A DNA stretch of 64,000 nucleotides from a phage. The stretch's first letter is position 1. Every line of letters starts with the position of its first letter. This document shows, piece by piece, positions 4,997 to 63,910 of this stretch. The notes beneath the pieces were generated by a model. It was not told where the DNA came from and made no database searches. It worked only from the letters and a program-made list of their open reading frames with translations. The DNA lies in the sequence record MZ956761.1; one strand, 5' to 3'. The position numbers were made by a program, and so were the translations under genes.

Positions 4997-5004
4997 TATA
5001 AATA
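4997..5004 (+). promoter_or_regulatory. T4-type late promoter motif TATAAATA upstream of gene 4
   Basis: Exact TATAAATA about 27 nt before ATG 5031. Confidence 0.5.
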
Positions 5005-5011
5005 TATTATC

Positions 5012-5019
5012 TATTTATA
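5012..5019 (-). promoter_or_regulatory. T4-type late promoter motif TATAAATA (minus strand) upstream of gene 53
   Basis: Reverse complement of tatttata at 5012-5019, upstream of minus-strand start at 4983. Confidence 0.5.
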
Positions 5020-5030
5020 AGGAGAATCCA

Positions 5031-5483
5031 ATGGCATATTCTGGAAAATGGGTTCCTAAAAATATATCAAAATATAGAGGTGACCCTAAAAAAATTACGT
5101 ATAGATCAAATTGGGAAAAATTCTTTTTTGAATGGTTAGATAAAAATCCAGAAATTATTGCATGGGGTAGTGAAACAGCAGTAATTCCTTATTTTTGTAA
5201 TGCAGAAGGGAAAAAACGTAGATACTTCATGGATATTTGGATGAAAGATTCTTCTGGACAAGAATTTTTTATTGAAATAAAACCTAAAAAAGAAACACAA
5301 CCACCAGTTAAACCAGCACATCTAACAACTGCAGCGAAGAAAAGATTTATGAATGAAATTTATACCTGGTCTGTGAACACTGACAAATGGAAAGCAGCAC
5401 AATCTTTAGCTGAAAAGCGTGGAATAAAATTTAGAATTTTAACAGAAGATGGATTACGAGCTCTTGGCTTTAAGGGGGCATAA
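5031..5483 (+). CDS. 4: Head completion protein gp4
   Basis: 150 aa; divergent from gene 53, followed by genes 2 and 3 as in T4. Confidence 0.8.
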
Positions 5484-46248: not shown

Positions 46249-47933
46249 AGAATTTTAAACTAAACCGAGTTAGGTATCAAAATATAATGTCAGTAGGTGG
46301 AAATCCTATTGACATTCAACTAGATAAGGTTCAAAAAACTCTTATTACTGGACGAAATGGCGGTGGTAAGTCTACTATGTTAGAAGCCATCACATTTGGG
46401 CTTTTTGGCAAGCCATTTCGTGATGTAAAGAAAGGTCAATTAATAAACAGCACAAATAAGAAAGAACTTTTAGTTGAACTGTGGATGGAATATGATGAGA
46501 AAAAGTACTATATCAAAAGAGGACAAAAACCAAACGTTTTCGAAATCACCGTTAACGGTACACGTCTTAATGAATCTGCCAGCAGTAAAGATTTCCAAGC
46601 AGAATTTGAACAGCTTATCGGAATGTCATATGCCAGTTTCAAGCAGATTGTTGTCCTTGGTACAGCAGGGTATACCCCTTTCATGGGTTTGTCGACCCCT
46701 GCACGAAGAAAGCTTGTGGAAGACCTGCTCGAGGTAGGAACATTAGCTGAAATGGATAAGCTTAATAAAGCACTAATACGTGAATTAAATTCACAAAACC
46801 AAGTGCTTGATGTTAAAAAAGATAGTATTATCCAACAAATTAAAATATATAATGATAACGTTGAACGCCAGAAAAAATTAACTGGTGATAACCTTACTCG
46901 TCTACAGAATATGTATGATGATTTGGCAAAAGAAGCTAGAACGTTAAAATCGGAAATAGAAGAAGCTAATGAAAGATTAGTTAATATTGTTTTGGATGAA
47001 GACCCGACTGATGCATTTAATAAAATCGGTCAAGAAGCATTTTTAATTAAATCAAAAATTGACTCGTATAATAAAGTCATTAATATGTATCACGAAGGTG
47101 GATTATGTCCAACCTGTTTGTCACAATTAAGTTCCGGTGATAAAGTTGTTTCTAAAATTAAAGATAAAGTTTCTGAATGCACGCATTCGTTTGAACAGCT
47201 TTCAACNCNNCNNGNNNNNNNNNNAGTATNTCGTTNNTNANTNNNGNGATNNTNNNAANNNCNANNNGTNNGTTGCTTGCNNNTNNTNTGTNNCNNTNNA
47301 AANCANTNNNTNNNCACGACTGTAGATAAAGCTAAAANAGTTAAAGCAGCTATAGAANAAGCATCATCTGAGTTTATTGNCCATGCTGATNAAATNGCNC
47401 TGCTTNAAGANGAACTTGATAAAATTGTTAAGNCAAANACTAATTTNNTAATGGAAAAATNCCACNGAGGAATTTTGACTGATATGCTCAAAGATTCTGG
47501 TATTAANGGTGCTATTATTAAAAAGTACATTCCATTATTTAATAAGCAGATTAACCATTATCTTAAAATAATGGAAGCGGATTATGTGTTTACATTAGAT
47601 GAAGAATTTAATGAGACAATTAAATCCCGTGGTCGTGAAGATTTTAGTTATGCTTCATTCAGTCAAGGCGAAAAAGCACGAATTGATATTGCTCTTCTAT
47701 TTACTTGGCGTGATATTGCTGAAAAAGTTTCAGGTGTTAAAATAAACACACTAATTCTCGATGAAGTTTTTGATTCAGCAACTGATGTTGAAGGTGTAAA
47801 AGCTATTTCAACTATTTTAGATAGTTTAAAAAATACTAATGTTTTTGTTATTTCACATAGAGACCACGACCCGCAAGCATATGGTCAGCATCTTCAAATG
47901 AAGAAAGTTGGTCGATTTACTGTAATGGTTTAA
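46245..47933 (+). CDS. 46: Recombination ATPase subunit gp46 (Rad50/SbcC-like)
   Basis: 562 aa; Walker A GRNGGGKST, central coiled coil, C-terminal signature region; interior partly masked by n. Confidence 0.9.
   Translation: MKNFKLNRVRYQNIMSVGGNPIDIQLDKVQKTLITGRNGGGKSTMLEAITFGLFGKPFRDVKKGQLINSTNKKELLVELWMEYDEKKYYIKRGQKPNVFEITVNGTRLNESASSKDFQAEFEQLIGMSYASFKQIVVLGTAGYTPFMGLSTPARRKLVEDLLEVGTLAEMDKLNKALIRELNSQNQVLDVKKDSIIQQIKIYNDNVERQKKLTGDNLTRLQNMYDDLAKEARTLKSEIEEANERLVNIVLDEDPTDAFNKIGQEAFLIKSKIDSYNKVINMYHEGGLCPTCLSQLSSGDKVVSKIKDKVSECTHSFEQLSXXXXXXXVXRXXXXXXXXXXXXXCLXXXCXXXXXXXXTTVDKAKXVKAAIEXASSEFIXHADXXXLLXXELDKIVKXXTNXXMEKXHXGILTDMLKDSGIXGAIIKKYIPLFNKQINHYLKIMEADYVFTLDEEFNETIKSRGREDFSYASFSQGEKARIDIALLFTWRDIAEKVSGVKINTLILDEVFDSATDVEGVKAISTILDSLKNTNVFVISHRDHDPQAYGQHLQMKKVGRFTVMV
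47207..47466. other. Stretch of partly ambiguous bases (n) inside gene 46
   Basis: n interleaved with called bases; translation gives X runs. Confidence 0.9.
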
Positions 47934-60153: not shown

Positions 60154-60336
60154 ATGGAATTGGTAAAGGTAGTTTTTATGGGGTGGTTTAAGAACGAAAG
60201 CATGTTTACTAAAGAAATCACAATGATGAAAGATGACGTTCAATGGGCTACTAATCAATATGCTGAAGTTAATAAAGCACTAGTTAAAGCTTTCATTGAT
60301 GACAAGAAAGTATGCGAAGTGGATTGCCGAGGATAA
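60154..60336 (+). CDS. dmd: Dmd, discriminator of mRNA degradation (antitoxin against RnlA/LsoA)
   Basis: 60 aa MELVKVVFMGWFKNESMFTKEI; directly after gene 41. Confidence 0.7.
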   Translation: MELVKVVFMGWFKNESMFTKEITMMKDDVQWATNQYAEVNKALVKAFIDDKKVCEVDCRG

Positions 60337-61263: not shown

Positions 61264-61557
61264 ATGAAAAAATTTGTTTTTGCTGCAATTTTTGCTTTGG
61301 CTTCTTGTACTGCTCAGCCTGCTATGGCGGGTTATGATAAAGATTTGTGTGAATGGTCTATGACTGCAGATCAGACTGAGGTTGAAACTCAAATTGAAGC
61401 AGATATTATGAATATCGTTGAGCGTGATCGTCCTGAAATGAAAGCTGAAGTGCAAAAACAGCTTAAGTCTGGTGGTGTAATGCAGTATAATTATGTTCTG
61501 TATTGCGATAAAAACTTTAATAATAAAAATATCATCGCTGAAGTGGTAGGTGAGTAA
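61264..61557 (+). CDS. sp: Spackle periplasmic protein
   Basis: 97 aa; signal peptide MKKFVFAAIFALASCTAQPAMA; position between dmd and 61. Confidence 0.65.
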   Translation: MKKFVFAAIFALASCTAQPAMAGYDKDLCEWSMTADQTEVETQIEADIMNIVERDRPEMKAEVQKQLKSGGVMQYNYVLYCDKNFNNKNIIAEVVGE

Positions 61558-62094: not shown

Positions 62095-63123
62095 ATGTCA
62101 TCAATACCTTGGATTGATAATGAGTTTGCATACCGTGCATTAGCTCATTTACCTAAATTCGCACAAGTAAATAATAGTTCAACTTTTAAATTACGGTTTA
62201 GATGTCCTGTTTGTGGAGATTCAAAAACCGATCAAAATAAAGCCCGTGGATGGTATTATGGTGATAATAATGAAGGAAATATTCATTGTTATAACTGTAA
62301 CTATCATGCACCAATCGGAATATATTTAAAGGAGTTTGAACCTGATTTATATCGTGAGTATATCTTTGAAATAAGAAAAGAAAAAGGTAAAAGTCGTCCA
62401 GTAGAAAAACCTAAAGAACTTCCTAAACAACCTGAGAAGAAAATAATTAAATCTCTTCCGTCATGCATTAGATTAGATAAACTGGCGGAAGACCATCCAA
62501 TTATAAAATATGTAAAAGCTCGTTGTATTCCAAAGGATAAATGGAAATATCTTTGGTTTACAACTGAATGGCCTAAATTAGTTAATAGCATAGCACCCGG
62601 AACATATAAAAAGGAAATACCTGAGCCTCGTCTTGTTATTCCAATTTATAATGCTAATGGAAAAGCTGAGTCTTTTCAAGGACGTGCATTAAAGAAAGAT
62701 GCTCCTCAAAAATATATCACCATCAAAGCTTATCCCGAGGCAACAAAAATCTATGGAGTCGAACGAGTCAAAGATGGTGATGTATATGTTCTAGAAGGAC
62801 CTATAGATTCACTTTTTATTGAAAATGGTATAGCTATTACGGGTGGTCAATTAGACCTAGAAGTTGTTCCATTTAAAGATAGACGTGTGTGGGTCTTAGA
62901 TAATGAACCTCGTCACCCTGACACTATTAAACGAATGACTAAATTAGTTGATGCAGGAGAAAGGGTTATGTTTTGGGATAAATCTCCCTGGAAATCAAAA
63001 GATGTTAATGATATGATTAGAAAGGAAGGTGCAACCCCTGAACAAATTATGGAATATATGAAAAATAATATTGCCCAAGGGTTGATGGCTAAAATGCGGC
63101 TATCTAAATATGCTAAGATTTAA
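62095..63123 (+). CDS. 61: DNA primase gp61
   Basis: 342 aa; zinc ribbon CPVCGDS...CYNC; TOPRIM-like region. Confidence 0.9.
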   Translation: MSSIPWIDNEFAYRALAHLPKFAQVNNSSTFKLRFRCPVCGDSKTDQNKARGWYYGDNNEGNIHCYNCNYHAPIGIYLKEFEPDLYREYIFEIRKEKGKSRPVEKPKELPKQPEKKIIKSLPSCIRLDKLAEDHPIIKYVKARCIPKDKWKYLWFTTEWPKLVNSIAPGTYKKEIPEPRLVIPIYNANGKAESFQGRALKKDAPQKYITIKAYPEATKIYGVERVKDGDVYVLEGPIDSLFIENGIAITGGQLDLEVVPFKDRRVWVLDNEPRHPDTIKRMTKLVDAGERVMFWDKSPWKSKDVNDMIRKEGATPEQIMEYMKNNIAQGLMAKMRLSKYAKI

Positions 63124-63320
63124 ATTAACCCAACCAAAGCAAATGCTAAATCTACGAATGTATCAAGAGTAATTACTGGAATATTAACACCATGAGCAAT
63201 AGCAATTGGTGATAAAACAAAATTCCAGAGTAAAATTCCTACCGTAGCAGAAATAGTAAAAGCTATACGCTTTTTATTACCTTTGATGGCATTAACAAGT
63301 GCCATTAATTTTTGTACCAT
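63120..63320 (-). CDS. Small membrane protein on the minus strand
   Basis: 66 aa; RBS AAGGAGG 4 nt before ATG; near-consensus late motif AATAAATA upstream; hydrophobic helices. Confidence 0.45.
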   Translation of the reverse strand: MVQKLMALVNAIKGNKKRIAFTISATVGILLWNFVLSPIAIAHGVNIPVITLDTFVDLAFALVGLI

Positions 63321-63391
63321 ATGTCCTCCTTATTGCTTTATATATTTATTGTATAATTAATCTACTAACCCATGAATTGAAAGGAAAAATA

Positions 63392-63910
63392 ATGGCTCAC
63401 TTTAATGAATGTGCTCATTTGATCGAAGGTGTTGATAAAGCAAATCGTGCATATGCTGAGTATATTATGCACAGTATTGACCCATTGCAGGTTATGCTTG
63501 ACATGCAGCGGCATTTACAGATTCGTTTGGCTAATGATAAACCAGAAACAAATCGTCATCCTGATTCACTTGAAACTGCAGGAGAAGTTCTTGCTTGGTT
63601 GCGAAACCAAGACGATTATATCGCAGACGAAACTCGCGAGCTATATACTTCTCTTGGTGGTATGAGTAATGGTGAAAAAGAAGCTTCTGCTGTATGGAAA
63701 CCTTGGAAGAAACGTTATTCTGAAATGCAATCCAAGAAAATTCAAGATTTATCTCCTGAAGATCAACTTGAAATTAAATTTGAACTAATTGACCAATTTC
63801 ACTTTTTCATGAATAAATTTATTGCTCTTGGAATGTCAGCTGAAGAAATCTTTAAACTTTATTATCTGAAAAATGCTGAAAACTTCGCTCGTCAAGACCG
63901 AGGCTATTAA
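63392..63910 (+). CDS. 56: Probable dCTP pyrophosphatase gp56
   Basis: 172 aa helical protein from ATG 63392 (RBS AAGGAAAAA); size and position as T4 gp56. Confidence 0.65.
   Translation: MAHFNECAHLIEGVDKANRAYAEYIMHSIDPLQVMLDMQRHLQIRLANDKPETNRHPDSLETAGEVLAWLRNQDDYIADETRELYTSLGGMSNGEKEASAVWKPWKKRYSEMQSKKIQDLSPEDQLEIKFELIDQFHFFMNKFIALGMSAEEIFKLYYLKNAENFARQDRGY

Follow-up and report, generated by a model that had tools for sequence, protein, structure and literature searches.

A small, already catalogued gene for a probable late membrane microprotein lies beside primase gene 61, on the opposite strand, in T4-like phages

Gene content of the locus

The window, a 64,000-nucleotide stretch of phage DNA (sequence record MZ956761.1), includes a plus-strand block of ~59 kb. 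Within this block, in the gap between genes 61 and 56, one minus-strand ORF is preceded by a strong Shine-Dalgarno (SD) sequence; no other minus-strand ORF of the block both occupies a gap and has a strong SD sequence before it. The features of the locus are listed below with the evidence for each.

62095..63123, plus strand: gene 61, DNA primase, 342 aa, convergent neighbour of the ORF (PHROG 47, E 7.8e-107)
63120..63123, both strands: TTAA, in which the stop of gene 61 (plus strand, TAA 63121-63123) and the stop of the ORF (minus strand, 63122-63120) overlap tail to tail (sequence)
63120..63320, minus strand: ORF of 66 aa, ATG to TAA, predicted small bitopic membrane protein of PHROG 2024 (ORF listing, profile match, conservation)
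63283..63318, plus strand: hairpin resembling an intrinsic terminator on the sense strand of gene 61, with an 11-bp stem and a UUUUUGU tail (dG -12.4 kcal/mol, z -3.6)
63325..63331, minus strand: SD sequence AAGGAGG, with the ATG 4 nt further on (sequence)
63331..63357, plus strand: middle-promoter-like site for gene 56, with MotA box TATTGCTTTA at 63331-63340, an 11-nt spacer and a -10 element TATAAT at 63352-63357 (pattern match only)
63343..63350, minus strand: AATAAATA, a variant of the T4 late-promoter box (consensus TATAAATA), 22 nt before the ATG (sequence, conserved position)
63392..63910, plus strand: gene 56, dCTPase/dUTPase, 172 aa, divergent neighbour of the ORF (PHROG 173, E 2.7e-44)

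The original prediction had placed a hydrophobic 66-aa ORF with a strong ribosome binding site on the minus strand between primase gene 61 and gene 56. The ORF and the AAGGAGG were found exactly there. Read from its ATG, the ORF encodes MVQKLMALVNAIKGNKKRIAFTISATVGILLWNFVLSPIAIAHGVNIPVITLDTFVDLAFALVGLI, and the maximum of its 19-residue Kyte-Doolittle means is 1.87.

Distribution and conservation of the ORF

The window segment is 100% identical to Escherichia phage ADUt (Tequatrovirus), in which the ORF is entered as hypothetical protein WFG41893.1. The product matched PHROG 2024 along its whole length (E 7.5e-31), residues 2-66 aligning with profile positions 1-65 of 65. This family, which has no assigned function, includes RB69ORF029w, the RB69 orthologue of the window ORF. 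The same ORF occurs in reference T4 at NC_000866 17738-17938, between dam and 61, where it is unannotated. It is annotated in RB69 and in most automatically annotated relatives, and lacks annotation in T4 NC_000866, MT984581 and several other records. Because it is already entered as a hypothetical protein in the source genome and in hundreds of related ones, the ORF is not a new gene. No published work on the ORF or on RB69ORF029w was found in the literature searched.

Conservation in related phages had been proposed as a check on the original prediction. Using tblastn, the ORF was detected in 694 phage records, with amino acid identities of 90-100% in Tequatrovirus, ~50% in Mosigvirus and Gaprivervirus, and 33% in Karamvirus. 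Profile searches added T4-like phages of Klebsiella, Enterobacter and Salmonella. In at least five T4-like groups, homologues at 20-50% amino acid identity occupy the same position and strand. Throughout the T4-like lineages examined, the ORF lies on the opposite strand and shares the TTAA stop overlap with gene 61; the 4-nt overlap was seen in T4, JS09, VR25, CkP1, L014, L025, L026 and L028. An AGGAGG-type SD sequence is preserved at all homologous loci compared. The other neighbour varies, being dam in T4, gene 56 in the window and an HNH endonuclease in L014. Tandem paralogue pairs occur in VR25 (gp031-gp032) and L028.

Word-indexed homology searches together with an exhaustive profile search, the latter over 1.84 billion representatives, delineated a narrow family of 19 clusters. 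Its distant member P0122 matched PHROG 2024 at E 1.3e-9. The same searches provided no bridge to any annotated family. Compared with the other PHROG 2024 genes beside gene 61 in Tevenvirinae (ADUt WFG41893.1, VR25 gp031-gp032, CkP1_0028), with which it shares size (57-69 aa), strand, TTAA overlap and late-type box, the window copy differs in nothing of kind and is an ordinary member.

Selection on the coding sequence was estimated from homologue comparisons. dN/dS ranged from 0.10 to 0.39, and the second codon position was substituted least. Between JS09 and VR25, dS exceeded 1.3 and dN was 0.49. The dN/dS values indicate purifying selection, and the ORF is therefore a real coding gene.

Late-type promoter box and timing of expression

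T4 late promoters consist of a TATAAATA box about one helical turn upstream of the start site and lack a -35 element. The near-consensus late-type motif noted upstream of the ORF in the original prediction, AATAAATA, matches this box at 7/8 positions, with A at -13 and A/T-rich sequence downstream. Its position is kept across the T4-like lineages. A late-promoter-like octamer, mostly NATAAATA, lies 17-22 nt before the ATG in every T4-like lineage examined. The N-ATAAATA form is preserved in these lineages, and one of them, L028, has the perfect TATAAATA. The L028 box refutes the notion that T never occurs at -13.

NATAAATA occurs only 15 times in the 64-kb window, counting both strands, so ~0.2% would be expected within a 15-nt interval. 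Four variants other than TATAAATA are present in the window, and only the one at 63343-63350 is followed by an SD sequence and an ATG ORF. Conservation of the ORF together with the late-type motif across genera goes beyond chance. A promoter scan of the minus strand upstream of the ORF yielded no sigma-70 promoter.

Among natural variants of the T4 late promoter, A at -13 is the most frequent, occurring at 9/50 listed sites (PMC2988020). The box departs from consensus at -13 in most lineages, and the same source cautions on the in vivo strength of variants. The orientation of the ORF is also informative. Its strand polarity is used in T4 by late transcripts only, early and middle RNA having the opposite polarity (PMC2988020). 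Because all early and middle transcription of T4 runs the other way, late expression of the ORF, which the original prediction had read from its orientation, is a well-supported inference. Judged from the DNA sequence, the ORF is probably expressed late.

The following route to the protein is proposed. Late in infection, gp55-RNA polymerase would probably initiate at AATAAATA (63350-63343). Transcription would start ~6-7 nt past the late box and give an mRNA with a short leader of ~15 nt, which would lie on the strand opposite to the early and middle block. The strong SD sequence would then drive translation of the 66-aa protein, whose coding status, as judged by evolutionary constraint, is close to certain.

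A comparable arrangement is found ~0.9 kb further on in the 39-56-61 region, where T4 soc is likewise a small gene with a late-promoter box among early and middle genes; it belongs with the late genes that are nested in the early region or lie where both strands are transcribed. In both cases a TATAAATA-type box is located ~20-30 nt from the ATG and the leader is short. soc differs in sharing the strand of the early genes and in specifying a soluble protein that decorates the capsid, whereas the ORF runs on the other strand towards gene 61 and its predicted product is a membrane protein. The ORF box, unlike that of soc, is a 7/8 variant in most lineages.

Overlapping plus-strand elements

The ORF and its upstream region overlap plus-strand elements. 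The terminator-like hairpin sits within codons 1-13 of the ORF and is likely the 3' end of gene 61 transcripts, in which case the 5' coding region of the ORF would double as the gene 61 terminator. The hairpin is also found in T4 and L009; in other genera it is weaker or displaced. Upstream of the ORF, the spacer of the middle-promoter-like site for gene 56 holds the opposite-strand late box, and the ORF promoter would overlap this MotA-type promoter. The consensus for middle promoters is wwwTGCTTtA located 12+/-1 bp from TAtaaT (PMC2988021).

The gene 61 3' UTR is fully complementary to the ORF. Scanning and folding found no minus-strand terminator behind the ORF, so a late transcript may simply run antisense into gene 61. 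This raises the question of whether the important product is the RNA, with late antisense transcription helping to shut off primase synthesis or the region mattering solely for its part in the gene 61 3' UTR and terminator, and the ORF being secondary. In its favour are the missing terminator, the gene 61 hairpin inside the ORF and a linkage to gene 61 that is invariably tight while the other neighbour changes. We consider it very improbable. Protein conservation persists where synonymous divergence is saturated, with dN/dS <0.4. Changes in length are in-frame (57-82 aa) and the SD sequence is conserved. Homologues occur in unrelated phages with no primase neighbour, and the hairpin is strong only in Tequatrovirus. 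No dedicated antisense RNA of the type I toxin-antitoxin kind was found at the ORF locus. An antisense role could nevertheless be additional to that of the protein.

Predicted structure and topology of the protein

The original prediction described the product as a small membrane protein, and the hydrophobicity profile and AlphaFold model agree, with one predicted transmembrane (TM) helix at residues ~16-42. The AlphaFold model (mean pLDDT 74.5) has helices at residues 2-13, 16-42 and 52-63. The net charge is +5 over residues 1-18 and -2 over residues 43-66, which contain no basic residue. The combination of a basic N-terminus, a single TM helix and a short helix at the C-terminus that is acidic and amphipathic suggests an N-in/C-out orientation. 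The protein is predicted, with somewhat better than even confidence, to insert in the inner membrane N-in/C-out, leaving the basic amphipathic helix 2-13 in the cytoplasm, spanning the membrane with residues ~16-42 and exposing the acidic amphipathic helix 52-63 to the periplasm. The C-terminus of the window protein reads ...LAFALVGLI.

Family alignments A1-A3 revealed that W32, N33, P38, A40, G44, P48 and D52 are invariant or nearly so. The window protein contains the core motif [WY]-N-x4-P-x-A-x3-G-x3-P, with an acidic residue after it. The TM helix would carry the family-invariant face W32-N33...P38.A40...G44.

The same region was considered as a long cleavable Sec signal peptide. Under this reading the N-terminal 42 residues would be removed, leaving HGVNIPVITLDTFVDLAFALVGLI, an amphipathic peptide of 24 residues, in the periplasm. 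The sequence follows n-h-c grammar, with a basic N-terminal region, then a hydrophobic core, P38 at -5 and an A-x-A at 40-42, and the family alignment has Ala at -3 almost throughout and often a small residue at -1. The hydrophobic stretch of 19-24 residues, however, has the length of a TM anchor rather than that of a signal core (7-15), and the most conserved residues of the family, W32 and N33, would be unusual within a signal core. At -1, several members, P0116 and P0118 among them, carry F or W, residues that leader peptidase would not accept. Cleavage is considered unlikely, and a TM anchor is the preferred interpretation.

Neither Pfam nor NCBIfam gave a significant match to the window protein, and a scan of 21 family members returned only PHROG 2024. 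Below threshold, the window protein and the 21 members gave Pfam-type noise from PF11351, MASE7 and P13. When the AlphaFold model was compared with BFVD using Foldseek, no structural relatives were found beyond the protein's own family; other matches had E >3.

Distant homologues and candidate functions

Distant members of the family in non-T4 contigs are co-directional with their neighbours and lie inside tail or late operons. In the L017/L018 contig group, the only one with a lysozyme in the operon, the member heads a tightly packed run of four genes, the last of them a T4-type lysozyme gene. Tail genes or Endonuclease VII, and no lysis genes, are the neighbours in four other groups of non-T4 contigs. 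Homologues in siphovirus-like contigs are located in the tail-tip region. A lysis cassette, as suggested by L017, was considered and then downgraded, five further contexts showing tail and Endonuclease VII neighbours.

These contexts bear on two candidate functions. The first is a holin/antiholin-type factor in lysis timing that would form oligomers in the inner membrane late in infection, there opening small lesions or else modulating the T holin. Holins and antiholins (T4 T, RI, the phage 21 pinholin S21, PF11351) are also small late membrane proteins, and the ORF encodes a small TM protein behind a late-promoter box. T4 T has an N-in/C-out single-TM topology, which the predicted topology of the ORF product resembles. 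In UniProt the OE5505 orthologue has been named 'Holin' automatically. The lysozyme operon of L017/L018 would suit this function, and the paralogues paired in tandem in VR25 and L028 are reminiscent of holins with their antiholins. Similarity to PF11351 (GTA_holin_3TM) is weak, sub-threshold and directed to the last TM of that family: it appeared in 3/21 family members at E 0.03-0.1, and two of these scored 13.6-15.3 bits against a gathering score of 24.8. Profile searching brought in no Pfam-annotated relatives. Compared with known holins, the product has no significant sequence or fold match, no large periplasmic domain and no highly charged C-terminal tail, its charge being N-terminal. In no T4-like phage is the gene adjacent to lysozyme gene e or to t; its neighbours are primase and 56, dam or HNH, and in the four other non-T4 contig groups they are tail genes or Endonuclease VII. 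T4-like phages have holin T already, and gene e is elsewhere in the genome. T4 t-amber mutants do not lyse. T is thus required, and the ORF product is not a stand-alone holin. A role in lysis timing is on balance doubtful.

The second candidate is a factor for envelope protection or superinfection exclusion, or a modulator of a host membrane protein, that binds a host or phage protein of the inner membrane through its TM face, much as small bitopic regulators do. The predicted N-in/C-out bitopic form, the conserved polar TM face and the conserved acidic periplasmic helix are consistent with such a factor. The tail-tip region, where the siphovirus-like contigs carry their homologues, is the site of receptor-blocking and exclusion genes such as cor and llp. 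In the T4-like phages, the neighbouring 41-61 cluster carries sp (at 61264-61557 in the window), and in L028 the same cluster also includes imm, a gene with an Imm_superinfect domain. T4 Imm and Sp are small envelope-targeted proteins encoded in the neighbourhood of the ORF. Against this, imm and sp are expressed early and from the other strand whereas the ORF is probably late, Sp is secreted to the periplasm, sequence comparison revealed no similarity to Imm, Sp, Cor or Llp, and the argument from gene neighbourhood is purely positional. We regard this function, too, as unlikely; it and lysis timing are about equally likely.

Discussion

The interval at 63120..63320 is very likely a genuine conserved phage gene, with the four-step mechanism proposed for it taken as a whole. 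It is best described as an ordinary, already catalogued, uncharacterised gene for a late membrane microprotein.

Our best guess is that the protein has an envelope or lysis-stage role. The Asn/Pro/Gly face in the TM helix would most likely let TM helices associate, whether between copies of the protein or with a different membrane protein, although this step is speculative. We further speculate that the protein would act on the cell envelope in the late stage of assembly and lysis, and that it is probably an accessory, non-essential modulator. MgrB, SafA and AcrZ of E. coli are bitopic small membrane regulators that act by binding a larger membrane protein. The ORF product appears similar to these in size (~50-65 aa), in its single TM with polar residues and in its short extramembrane helix. 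There is no homology, and the comparison is an analogy for how the protein may work rather than a family assignment.

Tentatively, the T4 gene at NC_000866 17738-17938 may encode a Tevenvirinae-conserved late inner-membrane microprotein, with remote siphovirus-like homologues, that is a new player in T-even envelope biology by way of its Asn/Pro/Gly TM face, for example by modulating lysis inhibition or the triggering of the holin, or as a late exclusion factor.

The locus is an example of genome compaction, with overlapping convergent stops, a probable terminator inside an opposite-strand coding sequence, and putative late and middle promoters that overlap back to back. The finding carries modest weight in that T4, the best-studied phage genome, still omits a conserved and probably expressed small gene. 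A probable late membrane microprotein joins the short list of T-even envelope proteins. Should a lysis-timing or exclusion phenotype be found, it would be a useful addition to the T4 model of lysis and lysis inhibition.

A conserved gene opposite primase gene 61

The original prediction of a 66-aa minus-strand ORF between primase gene 61 and gene 56 was exact, and the strong ribosome binding site and near-consensus late-type motif that it described were both located. The elements of the locus are listed here.

63120-63320, minus strand: small ORF, ATG start, 66 codons, product MVQKLMALVNAIKGNKKRIAFTISATVGILLWNFVLSPIAIAHGVNIPVITLDTFVDLAFALVGLI
63325-63331, minus strand: Shine-Dalgarno sequence AAGGAGG of the small ORF, 4 nt from the ATG
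63343-63350, minus strand: late-type box AATAAATA, 22 nt from the ATG
62095-63123, plus strand: primase gene 61, flanking the small ORF
63392-63910, plus strand: gene 56 (dCTPase), flanking the small ORF
63120-63123: TTAA, common to the convergent stop codons of gene 61 and the small ORF
63283-63318, plus strand: terminator-like hairpin, 11-bp stem followed by UUUUUGU, within codons 1-13 of the small ORF
63331-63340, plus strand: perfect MotA box TATTGCTTTA, in the 71-nt gap that separates the small ORF from gene 56
63352-63357, plus strand: TATAAT, 11 nt from the MotA box

The expected conservation in relatives was borne out. The small ORF was identified by tblastn in 694 phage records, with 90-100% identity in 497, 80-90% in 6 and <60% in 191. 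Profile searches widened the family to T4-like phages of Klebsiella, Enterobacter, Salmonella, Citrobacter and Yersinia. It is a narrow family: 1.84 billion representatives yielded 19 clusters of it at 50% identity. The T4-like loci inspected were T4, JS09 (Mosigvirus), VR25 (Gaprivervirus), CkP1 (Karamvirus), the Klebsiella-type loci L014-L016 and the metagenomic loci L024-L026 and L028. In all of them the small gene lies opposite the early-gene strand and its stop overlaps the gene 61 stop by 4 nt, while the far-side neighbor varies (dam, 56, an HNH endonuclease or other small ORFs). Pairwise Nei-Gojobori dN/dS was 0.10-0.39, with most substitutions falling on the third and first positions of codons. 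For the JS09-VR25 pair, synonymous sites were saturated (dS > 1.3) and dN was 0.49. Length changes, from 57 to 82 aa, are in-frame. Distribution, synteny, dN/dS and in-frame lengths together establish that the small ORF codes for protein and evolves under purifying selection.

The family contains at least three sequence types, T4/RB69-like, Klebsiella-like and Karamvirus/Gelderlandvirus-like. Two types occur in tandem beside gene 61 in VR25 (A then B, L004 2495-2901) and in the contig L028 (B then A, 5001-5414), and these tandem paralogues are divergent, about 20-25% identical.

Prior annotation and comparison with T4

Escherichia phage ADUt (OQ466432, Tequatrovirus) matches the window segment at 100% identity. 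Its record lists the small ORF as hypothetical protein WFG41893.1, flanked by 'DNA primase' and 'dCTP pyrophosphatase'. The RB69-lineage orthologue is named RB69ORF029w, and PHROG 2024, a family of unknown function, matches the protein full-length (E 7.5e-31). Source names of cluster members are 'hypothetical', 'uncharacterized' and 'putative membrane protein', plus a single automatic UniProt 'Holin'.

T4 (NC_000866) has the small ORF at 92% amino-acid identity (T4 comparison locus L002 3239-3439, equal to NC_000866.4 17738-17938, + strand of the record). It occupies the 309-nt dam-61 gap, with AAGGAGG and GATAAATA upstream. NC_000866, MT984581 and K03113 all leave it unannotated, and no NCBI accession in the protein collection corresponds to the exact T4 version. 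In T4, dam separates the small ORF from gene 56 and segF follows 56. The window phage and most relatives lack dam there (323/514 records have coverage of at least 80% for the 61-ORF-56 query), and in place of segF after gene 56 they have two small ORFs, of which one is labelled soc.1. The breakpoints lie just upstream of the late-type box, so gene 61 is accompanied by both the small ORF and the box.

The nearby 41-61 intergenic cluster includes spackle (97 aa, signal peptide; 61264-61557, plus strand) and dmd (60154-60336, plus strand), as in T4. Small-ORF order in this cluster is unlike that of T4, the 61.2 homologue is shorter (118 aa vs 208 aa in T4), and two extra small ORFs of 84 and 64 aa are present. 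Elsewhere in the window, 47207-47507 holds about 40 short N runs of 1-10 bases each over 300 bases, which is masked or ambiguous sequence.

Probable late expression

The original prediction read the opposite-strand orientation as fitting late expression. The small ORF does sit on the non-early strand, and its box matches a natural promoter variant: the consensus TATAAATA is perfect in 32/50 listed T4 late promoters, and 9/50 have A at -13, which gives exactly AATAAATA (PMC2988020). Every T4-like lineage retains the late box, 17-22 nt before the ATG, despite diverged or replaced flanking intergenic sequence, in these forms.

AATAAATA: ADUt, JS09, L014-L016
GATAAATA: T4, L009, L010
CATAAATA: VR25, L011-L013, L024-L026
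ATTAAATA: CkP1
TATAAATA (perfect): L028, a Mosigvirus-like contig, preceding the paralogue pair

The two strands of the window together hold just 15 copies of N-ATAAATA, or about 0.2% for any 15-nt interval, and the small-ORF box is the sole non-consensus copy followed by a Shine-Dalgarno sequence and an ORF. No sigma-70-like promoter was found upstream of the small ORF on the minus strand. From strand, promoter variant and box conservation, gp55-dependent late transcription is likely.

Overlapping predicted transcription signals

The MotA box and TATAAT before gene 56 agree with the middle-promoter consensus (PMC2988021). The minus-strand late box falls in the spacer between them, so that it overlaps the gene 56 middle-promoter pattern back-to-back.

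The hairpin lies 160 nt past the gene 61 stop and has a free energy of -12.4 kcal/mol (z = -3.6 against shuffles). It is found in T4 and other Tequatroviruses, and is displaced or weaker elsewhere. Lys-rich codons of the small ORF supply the U-tract of a comparable hairpin in several other lineages. Because the hairpin is inside codons 1-13, gene 61 transcripts probably cross the entire small ORF antisense before terminating. No terminator was found on the minus strand 3' of the small ORF, so a late transcript may extend antisense into gene 61.

Protein features and possible function

An AlphaFold model built with a 20-sequence alignment (mean pLDDT 74.5) places helices at residues 2-13, 16-42 and 52-63, with residues 43-51 forming a loop. 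Net charge is +5 over residues 1-18 and -2 over 43-66, which has no basic residue. By the positive-inside rule, this distribution predicts an N-in/C-out protein with one TM helix and, facing the periplasm, a short acidic amphipathic helix (muH 0.40), in line with the hydrophobic membrane protein originally proposed. W32, N33, P38, A40, G44, P48 and an acidic residue at 52 are conserved throughout the subfamilies. From general knowledge of membrane proteins, a conserved Asn with Pro and Gly in a TM helix points to helix-helix association. P-x-A-x-A before the loop would fit a leader-peptidase cleavage site, but an uncleaved anchor is favored by the length of the hydrophobic core, by the invariance of W-N and, in some members, by F or W occupying -1.

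No Pfam or NCBIfam family matches the protein, Foldseek with the model retrieved its own family only, and a literature search found nothing on this ORF. The hints of a link to holins, namely the automatic UniProt name and sub-threshold PF11351 matches in 3/21 members, are weak. Holins have a charged C-terminal tail that is absent from this protein, and the gene never adjoins lysis genes in T4-like phages.

Credible remote homologues were found in non-T4, siphovirus-like metagenomic contigs (L017 4001-5610; L020, L023 and L029 4001-5100; L027 4001-4159); the phage collection has no cultured representative of this group. All share a W/Y-N...P.A...G..P..E motif, and one, P0122, matches PHROG 2024 at E 1.3e-9. 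Upstream are a tail-tip gene, a gene for a 94-aa protein with TM and coiled-coil segments, and a gene for Endonuclease VII. Downstream, except in L027, is a conserved gene pair whose products are a very basic protein of 180 aa and a second protein of 106 aa. A T4-type lysozyme ends the operon in one group only. These gene orders support membership of late operons without pointing to a specific function. On a short contig (L022 129-1383), another remote member, P0120 (59 aa), lies directly upstream of a gene whose 352-aa product has a RelA_SpoT domain.

As a best guess, the protein would sit in the inner membrane as a non-essential modulator during assembly and lysis. A role in lysis timing is rather unlikely, and exclusion or partner modulation is similarly doubtful.

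Both the observation and its interpretation in the original prediction are sound. The small ORF is a hypothetical gene already catalogued, and it would belong to a known general kind of gene, that for small membrane proteins made late in phage infection. What is worth retaining is that the gene is missing from the reference T4 annotation and that the surrounding sequence is put to very compact use.
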